Part shown: positions 25,578 through 57,547 of the stretch, in pieces
How the letters are laid out: every line of letters begins with the position of its first letter
How positions within the stretch are numbered: the first letter of the stretch is position 1
Virus record (IMG/VR): IMGVR_UViG_3300033070_001349
Location: 1-64,000 of that record
Direction: 5' to 3' (one strand)
Length of the DNA stretch: 64,000 nucleotides
DNA from: a virus
Taxonomy: Duplodnaviria > Caudoviricetes
Made by a program: the position numbers and the translations under genes
The notes under the pieces: generated by a model
What the model was told of the DNA's origin: nothing
Database searches by the model: none
The model's input: only the letters and a program-made list of their open reading frames with translations

Positions 25578-28500
25578 ATGCAGACCCCCAGGCTCCCCCA
25601 CCTCTTCACCGCCGCCGAGCTCGAAGCCATGGCCTCCTCGACCGATGGCACACCGGGCCTCACCGACAACGCGGTGGTGGCCGACCTCCTCTACACCGCC
25701 CGGATCCAGGCCGCCGAGCTAGCGAAGCACGAGAAGGACCTCGAAGACGCGGCCGGGGCCTTCCCGATCGCCCTCCCCGCCCCGGGGTCGGTCGAGGCCA
25801 AGCTCCTGCGGGCCAACTGCATCCTCAAGGGCGAGCGCACCGCGTGGGAGCGGGAGCGCCACTCGCTTCGGGAGCTCGTTCGGGTGGCCCTCCGCGAGCT
25901 CGACGCGGTGTGTCGGGAGGCCAACCCCCGCGCCTACTCGCAGGGGGACGGCATCCACCCCATGCAAGGCAAGGTCGGCGGGATGGACGGAGTCGTCCAG
26001 GGCCAGTCCCTCCTCGCGGTGTACTCGGTCTGCCGTCGCCTGTACCTCCTCGGGGTCGAGAAGGCGAAGGCGGCGGGGATCGAGGGCGTGTGACCCGCCG
26101 GGACCCCACCCGCGAAATCCTCTTCCGCCGGGCCTCCCTGGACCCGCGTCCTGAGCCCCCGTGGCACTTCGTGGGGTCCGCCCCCGACCTCCCCCGAGCG
26201 ATCGACGAGGTCGCCTCGTGGCTCGGGCCGCGACCCGCCCACGGGGACGCCGTCCTCCTCCACCAGAAAGCGAGGCCGCAGCGGGGGCGGGCCTTCGTCT
26301 TCGACGAGGACTCGGGGCTCTTCACGACCGAGACCCACGCCTACACCCTCGGCGAGGGCATCCGGGAGTGGGAGCAGGGCCACACGCAGCGGATGGTACT
26401 ACGGGGGTCGCTCGGGACTCTCGGCCGCCGGACCCTCGTCTACCGCTACATGCTCCTGGCCTGCGAGGCGACGGAGCGAATGGCTGCTGGCGTCCGCGCC
26501 ACCCTCACCCGTGAGGACCTCCCCCCGTGGGTAGACGGCCTCGTCCTGACGATCCGGTCGGTGGCCGCGGCGATCCGAGCGGGGAGCCCGGAGGGGGTGG
26601 TCTCCACCCACTCGTACCCCCTCCGCGCCGAGTGGAGCAAGGCCCTGGCGGACCTCCACAACAGCACCCGCGAGCTCGAATCCTGGGCCCGGCGGGACCT
26701 CGCGTCGAGCGAGCCCCTGCGCGGCTCCTTCCGGGACGCGGTCAGGATCCTCGGGCGGGCCGCCTACGTGCTGCTCGGGGAGGAGCGCGAGATGCTGTGG
26801 CGCCACGTCCCCCTTGCCTCGTACCTGTGCGCCCTGGCCAACATCCGAGACCCCTTTCCTCTCCACGTCTACGACCCCGCGAGGACACCATGAGCCACCG
26901 ACTCCCCATGCACCACCCTCACGTCCTGTGCCCAGCCCTCGCGGGGACCCACTACTTCGCGATCATCGGGGCGGCGGGCTATGCCCACGGCATCCTCGCC
27001 CGGACCCTCAAGGGCTTCCTCCACACGGCCACCCGACTCGCTCTGAGCGAGGGATTCGACAAGGTAGTCTCGATGGCCCCGGCACGCATCAACGTCGTCT
27101 CCCTCGACCGGGAGAGCCTCGGGCGCCTGGAGCACGACTACCGCAACGCCGAGCTCGACCGGGTGAGGGACCGGGTGGGGCGGTCCCTCCGAGGGCTCCT
27201 CAAGGCCAAGGATCCCATCCCCGAGGGCTTCGAGGTGATGCGTAAGCCGCGCACCGACGAGTTCCGGCGGCTGACCCCCAAGGGCCACGTCATCGTCAGG
27301 GTGCCCGGCGACAAGGGGGATCGCTTCCGGGTTGCGGATGCCCTCAGGGCCGCCGAAGACCTCTATCACCTGGGGGCCGGGTCGGTGGTAGCGGACACCG
27401 CCGCCGAGGCGCTCGAACCCCTCATGCCCTACCTCGAACGTCTCGGGGCCATCCTCGAAGCGGGCTTCCGCGTCCTGAGCGTCTCGGACTCCGGCGAGCG
27501 GGGCTCGCTCCTCGTCTCCCCCACCCTCGACGCCCTCGTGGCGGCCAACCCGTGACCCTCCCTCACTACCCACACCCCGAGCTCCCGAAGTGGCCTGAGG
27601 CCTGCGAGGTGGTCGAGCCGTACATCCGCGAGATGGTCGCCGTGGAGCCGGACACCTGGGCTCTCGCCGCCGAGGCCTTCGAGACGAACGGCCTCCTCCC
27701 GGAGGGCTTCTCTCAGGGCGCGCGGTGGGCCTGTCCGGGCGAGAAGAATGACCCGTGGAGCGACCATCGGCACCTCCGGTGCGGGAACACCTACGCGATC
27801 GACGCGCCGCCCTGGCTCCGCGACCTCATCCTCGTGGCATCCCTTGGGCTCGAAGCCCACAAGACCGTTCAGGGCCTCGCGGATGAGCTCTCGCGCGAGG
27901 CCCACGTCTTCGACTTCAAGCGGGGCCTGCGGGGGAGAGAGCGGGCCCGCATCCTGTGGCGGGTCTCGGCCAGGATGGTGCTCACGACTCTCCCAGGTAG
28001 CTACGGAGGGGCGGAGACCCGTTTCCACTGCTGGAACGAGCCCGGGTACAGCACCGAGCGCCCCCTGTCCTGCTACGCGGTGCGGCACGGGTGGGCCGCC
28101 GCTCCCGTCCCGGCGGACGCCAAGGAGATCCGGCGGGGCTATGGGGAGAATCTCCGGTGGCTCGCGCGTACGAGCTCGATCGACGGGACGAAGGTGTGCG
28201 CCCTCCTCTCCCAGCTCCTGGCCCTCGGGCTCTCCGTCGACCGGGTGTGTCCTGACCCCAAGACGGGGGAGAGTCATGTGGCTCTATGCTTCGAGGAGCT
28301 CGCCACCGACCCCCAACGGCCGGGTGAGCTCCGGGCGGGGCCGTGGTCGTGAGGAGCAAGCGGGAGGCCCTCGCCGCCGCCACGAAGGCGGTTCGGGATG
28401 GACACCGCGCGGAGGCCCTCGCCCTCCTCGGCGAGCTCGCGGCCCTCCTCGACGCCGAGGACCCGGTCGAAGCCGCGTGGAGCGCATGGACCTTCGAGGC

Positions 28501-54850: not shown

Positions 54851-55001
54851 CGAGACCCTCCCATATCGTAGATTGTAAGGGTCGGGTGGCGCGGCCACCG
54901 GACCCCGATCCAGAGCGATCGGGCTCACCCCTCCGGCGGTTCGGAGGGGCGCCGGGCCACCGGCCCACCACACCGACCCAAGGAAAGAGACAGCACACCC
55001 C
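54847..55001 (+). promoter_or_regulatory. promoter plus multibranched structured 5' leader of the HU gene
   Basis: TTGACG-N16-TAGATT; GGGTCGG/CCGACCC closing stem around four hairpins. Confidence 0.65.
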
Positions 55002-55376
55002 ATGGCCTCCACCAAGAAGACAGCCTCGAAGCCCGCCGCCAAGGCCCCCGCGTCCACCCCGAAGCGGTCGCCCGCCCCGGCGACCAAGAAGGCGATGATC
55101 GACGCCCTCGCCGCCTCGACGGGCGAGTCGAAGAAGAGCATCGACAAGGTGCTCCATGCTTTCGGGGCGTACGCCCTCTCCGAGGTCCAGGGCCGCGGCG
55201 CGGTGATCGTCCCCGGCATCGGCAAGATCCGCAAGGCGGTCCGCCCGGCCCGCCCCGAGCGCACGGGCCGCGACCCGCGGACGCAGCAGAGCCGCACCTT
55301 CCCGGCGATCCCGGCGAAGAGCGTGGCGCGCTTCCGCTTCGCCAAGGCCTTCAAGACCGGCGTCGAGTCGGTCTGA
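55002..55376 (+). CDS. hup: HU/IHF-family DNA-binding protein with a Lys/Ala/Pro-rich N-terminal tail
   Basis: TKKAMIDALAASTGESKK, VIVPGIGK, RTGRDPRT, IPAKSVARF. Confidence 0.88.
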   Translation: MASTKKTASKPAAKAPASTPKRSPAPATKKAMIDALAASTGESKKSIDKVLHAFGAYALSEVQGRGAVIVPGIGKIRKAVRPARPERTGRDPRTQQSRTFPAIPAKSVARFRFAKAFKTGVESV

Positions 55377-55406: not shown

Positions 55407-55724
55407 GTGGACTACCGCAAGCCCTTCCGGGTGCTCAGGGCCGCCAGGAACCTGAGCCAGAAGGAGCTCGCGGCGCGGATGGGGGTCACCCCCACCGTCA
55501 TCTCCCTCGCCGAGACCGGCGCCAGGAAGCCCTCCCGCGAGGTGGTCGAGCGAGCCGCTCGGGCCCTCGGGGTCTCCCTCCCCCTCTTCACGACCCTGGC
55601 CATGACCCCTGAGGCGTTCGCCGCCCTGACGCCTGCCGTCGTGGAGGGGGTGACCGCCGAGCTCCTCTCGGTGGTCCTCTCAGGGGAACATGGCCCCGCC
55701 GCGACCCCGCCCCCTCCGAATTGA
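55407..55724 (+). CDS. XRE-family HTH regulator
   Basis: LRAARNLSQKELAARMGVTPTVISLAETGARKPS. Confidence 0.85.
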   Translation: MDYRKPFRVLRAARNLSQKELAARMGVTPTVISLAETGARKPSREVVERAARALGVSLPLFTTLAMTPEAFAALTPAVVEGVTAELLSVVLSGEHGPAATPPPPN

Positions 55725-55754: not shown

Positions 55755-55949
55755 ATGCGCGACCAGTCTGTCCAGGCCGTCCACGAGCCCGTGGAGGGCT
55801 CCAAGCTCCGCATCCATCGGGGGGTCTACGCCGGGAAGGTCGGTGTGGTTCGGGGGCCCTACGCCGACCCGGTCCGCCCGGCGGGGTACAAGGTCGTCAT
55901 CGAAGGGGTCGCCACGGTCGTCTTCACTTTCGAGACGATGGCCCCTTGA
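55755..55949 (+). CDS. small KOW/SH3-like protein with its own leaderless promoter (55721-55748)
   Basis: LRIHRGVYAGKVGVV; TTGACT-N16-TAGATT-N6-ATG. Confidence 0.5.
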   Translation: MRDQSVQAVHEPVEGSKLRIHRGVYAGKVGVVRGPYADPVRPAGYKVVIEGVATVVFTFETMAP

Positions 55950-55973
55950 CTCCTCCAATCTAGGACATAGAAT
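55946..55973 (+). promoter_or_regulatory. promoter of the ncRNA island
   Basis: TTGACT-N16-TAGAAT. Confidence 0.8.
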
Positions 55974-55982
55974 ACAACTCGT

Positions 55983-56202
55983 GAGCGGCTCGATCGGTGA
56001 GCCCTTCGCGAACACCTCAAACGGACCCCCCGGACCATCCTCCGGGAGCGAAGGGCGAGGTGACGACGATCTAGCCCGCGACGCAGGCGAGGAGCTTGCG
56101 GAAGCAACCCGAGGAGGGGAGCGCGTCGGGCACTACGAGGGCGGACTGGGCCCCCGAAAAGGATCGAGGCAGCGCGCGAAGGATTCACCGATCGAGCCGC
56201 TC
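55983..56202 (+). ncRNA. 220-nt structured RNA closed by a 28-bp stem
   Basis: 55983-56010 pairs with 56175-56202 (one G-U, one mismatch); internal hairpins. Confidence 0.75.
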
Positions 56203-56207
56203 CAACC

Positions 56208-56284
56208 CCTCGCGTGGCGCAAAGCAGACGCGCTCCGTTCAGACCGGAGACATAGTGCGGGTTCGAGACCCGCGGCGAGGACCA
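56208..56284 (+). tRNA. atypical tRNA-Leu(CAG)
   Basis: CTCCG-TTCAGAC-CGGAG, GCGGG-TTCGAGA-CCCGC, 3' ACCA; G7:G66 mismatch, no D-loop GG, 7-nt variable region. Confidence 0.7.
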
Positions 56285-56307
56285 GACCGCTCCCGCAGAC
56301 CACCCCC

Positions 56308-56323
56308 GGAGTCATATGACTCC
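56308..56323. repeat. 16-bp palindrome, copy 13 (fully symmetric, 7 bp upstream of a -35)
   Basis: GGAGTCA-TA-TGACTCC. Confidence 0.92.
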
Positions 56324-56330
56324 AAGCCCG

Positions 56331-56358
56331 TTGACCTGACGGGCCTGCGTGATAGGTT
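56331..56358 (+). promoter_or_regulatory. second ncRNA promoter
   Basis: TTGACC-N16-TAGGTT. Confidence 0.75.
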
Positions 56359-56364
56359 GCAGTT

Positions 56365-56459
56365 GTTCAGACCCGGGGCCCTCCGAGACGGTCTCCTCCC
56401 CCGTGCCCCCTCGCGGCTCCCCGCCCGCCGCGAATCCTCCGAGGGCCCCGGGCCTGGGC
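56365..56459 (+). ncRNA. 95-nt RNA with a long terminal stem and two C-rich loops
   Basis: CCCGGGGCCCTC/GAGGGCCCCGGG; loops TCTCCTCCC and TCCCCGCCC; starts at the predicted +1. Confidence 0.65.
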
Positions 56460-56470
56460 GTTCGTTCGAT

Positions 56471-56547
56471 TCTCCCGTAGCTCAATTGGCTAGAGCACCG
56501 GCTTCCTAAGCCGGTTGTTGCAGGTTCGAGTCCTGCCGGGGGTGCCA
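56471..56547 (+). tRNA. tRNA-Arg(CCT)
   Basis: Cloverleaf GCTC/GAGC, CCGGC-TTCCTAA-GCCGG, GCAGG-TTCGAGT-CCTGC, 3' GCCA; U1:U72 mismatch. Confidence 0.92.
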
Positions 56548-56688
56548 TCCGTCGTCCAAGTTTAGGACGCTCGCTGATCGACCATCGGGGACGCCCGGGG
56601 CGGTCCGACCGGGGTCGCTCCCTGGAGTACCTGCGAGAGATGCTGTCTGTCCGCCCCTCCATAAGGGGGGCGGTGAGCAGCCGGACCA
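56548..56688 (+). ncRNA. tRNA-derived RNA with a 58-nt anticodon-loop insert and an expanded T-arm
   Basis: TCCG/CGGA plus CCA; D-arm GTCC/GGAC; CTCGC/GCGAG; AGAT; GCTG/CAGC. Confidence 0.55.
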
Positions 56689-56720
56689 ATTCACCCTGAC
56701 AGAGAAAAGGACGTGCGAAC

Positions 56721-57035
56721 ATGGCGAGCGAGATGGAGAAGATCCTCAAGGACCTCCCGGTGGGCTACATCGAAGACATGGTCTCCGCGGACCCGGCGAA
56801 GCTCCGGGACGAGATCGTGAAGGCGGACGCCCGCGCGGCCGAGATCAAGCGGGAGATGAAGGCCGACGAGAAGCTCGCGGGGGCCCGCGAGATCGTCAAG
56901 GACCTGTCCGGGGGCTACCGCGACGCCCTCAAGGCCCAGGCCGCCAAGGTGGCGTGGTGCCTCCACGAGCTCGACGAGAAGGGCCAGCCGGTCGACACGG
57001 GCTCCGAGGAGCCGGTCCCGGTGCCCGAGAAGTAG
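56721..57035 (+). CDS. hypothetical coiled-coil protein inside the RNA island
   Basis: AAGGA SD, 104-aa charged helical ORF. Confidence 0.7.
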   Translation: MASEMEKILKDLPVGYIEDMVSADPAKLRDEIVKADARAAEIKREMKADEKLAGAREIVKDLSGGYRDALKAQAAKVAWCLHELDEKGQPVDTGSEEPVPVPEK

Positions 57036-57039
57036 CTAC

Positions 57040-57164
57040 GGCCGGGTCGTCCAACGGCAAGACGACCGGAACCTCCCCCAGGTGAGCGCTTGCCCGGGAG
57101 GAGGGCCCGAGGGTAGATCGCCCTCGGTGGGGAGATGCGGGTTCGAGTCCCGCCCCGGCGACCA
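57040..57164 (+). ncRNA. tRNA-like RNA with the anticodon arm replaced by a multi-hairpin insert
   Basis: GCCGGG/CCCGGC plus ACCA; D-arm GTC-CAACGGCAA-GAC; T-arm GCGGG-TTCGAGT-CCCGC. Confidence 0.7.
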
Positions 57165-57264
57165 GCTTGACGGAGGCCCAGGTTCAACTCCGGGCACTTC
57201 TCCTCGGAGGGGTGTGGTGTAGGAGGTACGTCCCCCCGGGGGCGAGGCCGCGCACCGTCGAGCT
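57164..57264 (+). ncRNA. YrlA/Y-RNA-like circularly permuted tRNA mimic
   Basis: Outer stem AGCTTGACGG/CCGTCGAGCT; T-arm, loop-closed acceptor stem, D-arm in that order. Confidence 0.6.
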
Positions 57265-57292
57265 CCTCTATTCAACTACCGAGGTCCGCACC

Positions 57293-57547
57293 ATGAGCAT
57301 CCTGACCCGCCTCGCGCACCACCTCCACCTCGCGACCCGGGACTACCTCCGCTCCCGCGGGGAGACCCCCGGGATCTGGGGGGAGCGCCGCGAGCTCTAC
57401 GACAGGTGCCATCAGGCCTACGCCCAGGGCCGAACCTCGGAGGCCCGCGCCCTCCTCGACACGCTGAAGCTCGACCCGACGGGGATCGAGGCGGACCTCG
57501 TCCGCCTGGAGCTCCTCGTCCGCCGGAAGGAGTCGCTCGCCACATGA
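57293..57547 (+). CDS. hypothetical protein
   Basis: GAGG SD, ATGA-coupled to the AlkB-like gene. Confidence 0.55.
   Translation: MSILTRLAHHLHLATRDYLRSRGETPGIWGERRELYDRCHQAYAQGRTSEARALLDTLKLDPTGIEADLVRLELLVRRKESLAT

Follow-up and report, generated by a model that had tools for sequence, protein, structure and literature searches.

A stem-closed RNA domain between a phage promoter and a tRNA-Arg gene, a candidate small RNA released by RNase P

A tightly folded 95-nt element lies between a promoter and a tRNA-Arg gene in the genome of a tailed phage, which raises the question of what RNA, if any, this stretch gives rise to and what such an RNA could do. The element occupies positions 56365–56459 (+ strand) of the window, i.e. 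the first 64 kb (64,000 nucleotides) of a 148,482-nt IMG/VR record that is approximately 78% complete. A first-pass annotation had proposed that it is a small RNA displaying an anti-Shine-Dalgarno (anti-SD) loop. The record has a GC content of 71%, its + strand contains 38.5% C and 32.2% G, and essentially all genes are located on this strand. Leucine codons are CTC in 79% of the cases and CTG in only 13%, which is unusual for a high-GC genome, and this CTC-heavy usage is one source of the surplus of C relative to G in the coding strand. The phage has a gp23-like major capsid protein (27–35% identity to those of T4-type phages), which is encoded next to the portal and prohead protease genes. 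The portal reading frame (record positions 116136–118385) carries an HNH endonuclease domain (residues 31–95) in addition to the portal domain (residues 238–634).

The computed fold of the element is Y-shaped, a three-way junction with a minimum free energy of −56.5 kcal/mol that accounts for 70% of the ensemble. It is closed by a GC-rich outer helix (inverted repeat I2), in which positions 56365–56387 pair with positions 56437–56459 through 21 base pairs (6 + 12 + 3, with two 1 × 1 mismatches between them), and which encloses two hairpins, each with a 9-nt loop. Hairpin 1 (56388–56404) has a 4-bp stem and the loop UCUCCUCCC (loop 1, 56392–56400), which contains the anti-SD core CCUCC, and hairpin 2 (56411–56433) has a 7-bp stem and the loop UCCCCGCCC (loop 2, 56418–56426), without CCUCC. 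The two are joined by a single-stranded linker, GCCCCC (56405–56410). Pyrimidines make up 22 of the 24 exposed nucleotides, and 49% of the whole element is C. The unpaired probability is at least 0.9 for both loops, in the element alone as well as inside the pre-tRNA, and the Y fold is kept in 183-nt and 206-nt precursors, where the tRNA cloverleaf also remains intact. The sequence and fold described in the first-pass annotation, with a long terminal stem around two hairpins, were therefore recovered, and so was the single-stranded character of its loops.

None of 200 dinucleotide shuffles equalled the fold of the element (z = −4.6). Its energy density is no outlier in a 71% GC genome, ranking about 220th among the local folds, and folds of about −0.6 kcal/mol per nt are common in the phage genome, genes included. 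Perfect 12-bp inverted repeats within 90 nt number 9 in the genome, against about 5 expected. No coding signal was found in the element, which has no start codon at +1, and a coding reading of the region was rejected on the GC3 of the neighbouring frame (0.68, against at least 0.85 in phage genes). The case for a real RNA is made jointly by the shuffle z-score, the exact registration of the helix with the predicted +1 and the position 11 nt before a tRNA, and on these grounds the element is regarded as real as a structure.

The registration depends on the promoter (56331–56358, + strand), composed of TTGACC, a 16-nt spacer ending in the TG of an extended −10 and TAGGTT. It belongs to a family of near-identical phage promoters (TTGACN-16/17-TAG(A/G)TT), of which a pattern scan of the whole record found 27 on the + strand and 2 on the − strand (e.g. 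at 2979, 24252, 28653, 33377, 44205, 53038, 55721 and 63496), most of them with a conserved ATGCGC ahead of the −10 box. The promoter at 56331 fits the pattern less well than most of its family; it fell below the hexamer threshold of the scan tool and was identified by pattern instead, and it resembles the promoter at 55721 (P55721), which the tool listed with TG before the −10. At least 14 family promoters have an ATG or GTG 6–7 nt past the −10 box, so that their messages would be leaderless, and such starts fix the +1 at the seventh base after the box. Leaderless mRNAs thus appear, from these sequence patterns, to be systematic in this phage, in agreement with the many leaderless starts previously claimed for it. 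For the promoter at 56331 this count places the predicted +1 of the element on G56365, where the pairing of the helix begins. The proposal that the RNA begins at the +1 is well founded in this sense, since the first paired base coincides with the start expected from 29 phage promoters. It had also been remarked that some phage genes do have SDs; in fact many carry GGAG-type SDs, structural and replication genes included, and later genes use SDs.

Downstream, the element is followed on the same strand by a tRNA-Arg(CCT) gene with an encoded CCA (56471–56547), which was identified by ARAGORN and by Rfam (RF00005, 62.9 bits) and is the only tRNA of the record above the Rfam threshold. AGG, the codon read by this tRNA, represents 6.4% of the Arg codons of the phage. 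The 11-nt spacer between the two (56460–56470) is single-stranded in the precursor fold and has a U at tRNA position −1, as expected for the leader tail of an RNase P substrate, in which cleavage would take place at the end of the spacer. No terminator-like site was found between the element and the tRNA-Arg gene. By position, therefore, the element is the 5′ leader of pre-tRNA-Arg(CCU), and transcription of the tRNA-Arg unit very probably begins with it. The first-pass annotation had considered that the RNA could be just a degraded pre-tRNA leader; this holds as far as the position is concerned, and the released piece might either be degraded or persist, the latter being assumed in the reading set out below.

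Considering the promoters that are not followed by a leaderless start, only three adjacent ones (P54847, P55946 and P56331) give tight stem-closed domains from the +1, with about −0.58 to −0.60 kcal/mol per nt. P55946 produces a 220-nt RNA (55981–56204) that starts at the +1 and is closed by a 28-bp helix (z = −4.4). A frame opening with the GTG at 55981 runs across this RNA with a GC3 of only 0.68, which favours a non-coding reading. Directly after it there is a tRNA-Leu(CAG)-like module (56208–56284), without the long variable arm, which is degenerate: it is a tRNA for ARAGORN and falls below the Rfam tRNA threshold. P54847 leads to an HU-like gene (ATG at 55002) through a 97-nt stem-closed multi-branch 5′ UTR (54881–54977), and in this case the 5′-terminal domain stays attached to the mRNA. 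The units of P55946 and P56331, on the other hand, end at an RNase P substrate, so that their domains cannot be lasting 5′ stabilisers of what lies downstream. Since RNase P would sever each of them at once, the domain itself is read as the probable product and the tRNA, or tRNA-like module, as a 3′-end processing signal.

The identity and biogenesis that best fit these observations, held with a confidence slightly better than even, are those of a stem-closed small RNA freed from the tRNA-Arg(CCU) precursor by RNase P. Transcription from the promoter at 56331 would start at G56365, and the first 95 nt would fold into the three-way junction, the 5′ end being hidden in its 21-bp GC-rich helix. 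Host RNase P would then cut between U56470 and U56471, leaving a piece of about 106 nt whose 11-nt tail would be removed by 3′ exonucleases as far as the helix. Both ends of the trimmed RNA would then be sequestered, and it could persist as a small stable RNA. Two units of this kind would exist side by side, the tRNA-Arg unit and, upstream, the 220-nt RNA with its tRNA-Leu-like module. Against this reading, GC-rich folds of similar density are common in the genome, the C-rich loops derive in part from the local excess of C, the promoter is one of the poorer matches in its family, no homologue was found in the collections searched (see below), and the tRNA promoters of a related phage are not followed by structured leaders.

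The element is also one component of an unusual RNA island (55946–57264) that is worth studying as a whole, and this may be its main value. Further tRNA-like RNAs are located at 56548–56690, 57040–57164 and 57164–57264, and three related modules composed of T arm, acceptor and CCA constitute a repeat family (D1). The RNA at 57040–57161 can be aligned with the tRNA model over the full length, with a 64-nt insert replacing the anticodon arm (22.8 bits). A partial YrlA match (56514–56570) comprises the T arm of tRNA-Arg and the next D-arm-like hairpin; with 30 bits (E = 4e-4) it is well under the gathering score of 69, and it lies outside the element. A link to Y RNAs through Rsr or RtcB was dropped, as neither Rsr/TROVE nor RtcB genes were found in the 148-kb record.

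Homologue searches did not reveal relatives of the element. A covariance model built from it (R1), which derives from a single sequence and therefore has limited reach, recovers the element with 106.9 bits and no paralogue elsewhere in the phage genome. It gave no match in 151 genomes of the order to which the Polyangiales metagenome-assembled genomes (MAGs) mentioned below belong, in 18 larger records of related phages (three of them at least 90% complete) or at 9 neighbour-gene loci. Distant blastn of 55900–57300 against 50,697 phage records matched the tRNA and nothing else, and the exact 21-mer of hairpin 1 had no match in IMG/VR. A two-loop pattern had 19 matches in IMG/VR and 10 in JGI metagenomes, all of them chance matches without the hairpin geometry. 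For the AlkB-like and HU-like neighbour genes no kin were found in IMG/VR. The neighbouring gene for a 104-aa protein (56721–57035) has homologues in named genomes only in four Polyangiales MAGs (47–50% identity), and its kin in IMG/VR, Logan, ENA and these MAGs were accompanied by no tRNA, RNA island or R1 match. BLAST of the island against the four Polyangiales genomes returned only marginal GC-rich coding matches, which were dismissed on inspection. The homologues of the 104-aa protein, the sole indication of a host that emerged, make a myxobacterial (Polyangiales) host, together with the GC content, a reasonable but weak guess. The tRNA-Arg is 81–85% similar to Polyangiales tRNAs, no more than to those of unrelated phages, and is for this reason uninformative on the host.

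The family of the major capsid protein includes 54 related uncultivated phage contigs (GC 41–67%), most of them with 60–67% identity to the capsid protein of this phage and five with 32–37%. These relatives carry 9–50 tRNAs, the near-complete members (175–200 kb) having arrays of 39–50, and the present phage has one genuine tRNA plus mimics in 148 kb. The AlkB-like and helicase genes of the accessory region are absent from the capsid relatives. In one relative that was examined closely, promoter-like TTGAC sites recognised by eye precede the tRNAs by a few nt and no structured leader intervenes, suggesting that the element is dispensable in this family; it may even be a recent accident. On the searches made, the element would be a lineage-specific orphan.

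Several other explanations can be weighed against release as a small RNA. The first is that the domain acts purely in cis, protecting the triphosphate end or insulating the folding of the tRNA, and is discarded after cleavage with no role in trans. The HU-like gene provides a neighbouring case of an analogous stem-closed domain that opens a 5′ UTR and is kept on the mRNA, and 5′-terminal hairpins can stabilise messages, the one in the ompA 5′ UTR being an established mRNA stabiliser; that no target or partner was identified for the element is also consistent with this view. However, RNase P would sever the domain almost immediately, tRNAs are stable on their own, so that protection would gain little, and the tRNA promoters of related phages have short, unstructured leaders. 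A cis-acting leader is consequently considered rather unlikely.

A second alternative, for which the probability appears low, is that the RNA serves as a decoy or scaffold for a host protein, such as S1, a KH-domain, cold-shock or Rsr/Ro-type protein, which its rigid helix and pyrimidine-rich single strands would bind in concert with the adjacent tRNA mimics. The dense island of tRNA-like RNAs, including the partial YrlA-like match, and a stem-closed architecture similar to that of Y RNA stems point in this direction, as does the independence of leaderless translation from ribosomal protein S1. Nevertheless, the phage lacks a TROVE/Rsr or RtcB gene in 148 kb, no Rfam Y-RNA model covers the element, and no protein-binding motif was recognised in it. 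Very improbable is, in turn, the absence of any RNA function, the element being either a GC-rich inverted repeat that arose by chance or a site acting at the level of DNA (e.g. a protein-binding palindrome) in an intergenic gap. The modest excess of perfect inverted repeats, the unexceptional rank in energy density and the orphan status in every search would all fit this, but the z-score against shuffles, a helix that starts precisely on the predicted +1 and stops 11 nt short of a tRNA, and two neighbouring promoters with the same design do not.

The remaining alternatives concern the anti-SD motif and, with it, what a released RNA could do. The complementarity of loop 1 to SD sequences, on which the original proposal was based, is confirmed: its CCUCC core lies in a loop that is fully complementary to GGGAGGAGA and accessible, and composition accounts for part of the motif. 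The + strand contains 1006 copies of CCTCC (one per roughly 148 nt). CCUCC is found in a hairpin loop in 18% of 600 dinucleotide shuffles of the element and in 3.2% of 600 random genomic 95-nt windows, and CUCCUCC in 1.8% and 0.3%, respectively; the loop motif is thus in part a by-product of local C-richness, unusual for the genome and only mildly so for C-rich sequence. There are 13 GGGAGGAG sites in the phage, of which 1–2 are at a ribosome-binding site (RBS). The site at 86772 is clearly at the RBS of an intein-bearing ResIII helicase gene, and the one at 26778 is a possible second location. The RBS of the helicase, GGGAGGAGA, is the only one in the phage fully complementary to loop 1. The intein that splits this ResIII-type gene (record positions 86787–88952) contains a LAGLIDADG domain. 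No target or partner of the element stood out, either among the complementary sites of the phage or by co-folding with the RNA at 57040. This RNA had been suggested as a sponge, and the GGGAGGAGG noted in it is indeed present, at 57096; however, the site is sequestered by pairing within a stem and no more than 0.1 kcal/mol is gained by co-folding, and the sponge idea was rejected on both counts.

For the small RNA that RNase P would release, the best single guess at function, tentative and rather doubtful, is that the exposed pyrimidine-rich loops and linker pair with G-rich, SD-like sites on a few mRNAs; a global block of SD-led translation is not favoured. There is very little likelihood that the RNase P-cut RNA, as a mimic of the 16S anti-SD, switches off SD-dependent translation, either in the host or, in a timed manner, for some of the phage genes. 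In that case the ribosomes would be shifted in favour of leaderless messages, an RNA-based translational takeover of the host, and the systematic leaderless translation in this genome makes the anti-SD function worth one simple experiment. Least probable of all is the original model, in which an abundant anti-SD sRNA occludes the SDs of host mRNAs across the board and spares phage genes with leaderless or translationally coupled starts, the sponge being either the 57040 RNA or the 220-nt RNA: the accessible CUCCUCC of loop 1, the rarity of such loops in random genomic windows and the at least 14 leaderless phage genes speak for it, but thousands of SDs would need to be titrated by a single 9-nt loop, the anti-SD core is missing from loop 2, structural and replication genes of the phage have GGAG-type SDs and would themselves suffer from a general activity, the site suggested for sponging is paired and yields no co-folding gain, the element falls outside the cuckoo/ar14 family, the motif is partly compositional, and general occlusion was not supported by any test run.

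Among known RNAs, the first-pass annotation had pointed to the cuckoo RNAs, which have 2–4 adjacent hairpins with CCUCCUCCC in each loop, are restricted to Rhizobiales and Rhodobacteraceae, and usually adjoin a DUF1127 gene, OG1 (PMC4615179). The element resembles them in having adjacent hairpins with a C-rich anti-SD-like loop, in a layout similar to that of the two-hairpin (HP2) type (PMC4615179). However, CCUCCUCCC is matched at 8 of 9 positions by loop 1 and at 6 of 9 by loop 2, which has no CCUCC, and the long terminal helix enclosing the hairpins of the element has no counterpart in cuckoo RNAs. The hosts of the latter are alphaproteobacteria, and the phage studied here would infect a Polyangiales myxobacterium. 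A direct search with RF02344 (ar14, the cuckoo family; gathering score 58.8 bits) over the whole record, with E up to 10, gave nothing on the element, a permissive scan of all 4227 Rfam families, also with E up to 10, gave no match overlapping 56365–56450, and DUF1127 is absent from the flanking proteins tested with Pfam. Kinship with the cuckoo RNAs therefore fails on the family search, on the per-hairpin motif and on the alphaproteobacterial setting, and the resemblance is limited to one loop.

The C-rich-loop sRNAs of Firmicutes (RsaE/RoxS, and RNAIII with its UCCC motifs) likewise expose C-rich loops, through which they pair with the G-rich SDs of particular mRNAs, but their hosts are unrelated, they end at intrinsic terminators instead of a tRNA, and the element has no Rfam match to them. 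5′ stabilisers of the ompA type share with the element a structure that starts at +1 and sequesters the 5′ end. They remain on the RNA that they protect, whereas the element meets an RNase P cleavage site at once.

Closer in terms of biogenesis are RNAs derived from tRNA transcripts. The 3′ETS of leuZ in E. coli is a spacer of a tRNA transcript that is freed by tRNA-processing nucleases and pairs in trans, acting as a sponge for RyhB and RybB. It is, however, a 3′ external spacer and not a 5′ leader, and the element is far more structured and lacks a known partner. In phage T4, to which the present phage is distantly related through its major capsid protein, RNAC and RNAD come from the tRNA gene cluster and undergo maturation by the enzymes that process tRNAs. 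Like the element they are small phage-encoded RNAs, although they show no apparent sequence or structural similarity to it, are late RNAs of an AT-rich phage and occupy a different position relative to the promoter. The function of RNAC and RNAD in T4 is still unknown (PMC9697503). T4 and eukaryotic viruses provide known examples of the design in which a tRNA gene serves as a handle for processing. It has hardly been explored in high-GC phages, where the present locus, if the RNA accumulates, would illustrate clearly how a phage makes a defined small RNA by means of a tRNA gene. By analogy, the nearest precedents for the element would be T4 RNAC and RNAD and the sRNAs that originate from tRNA spacers.
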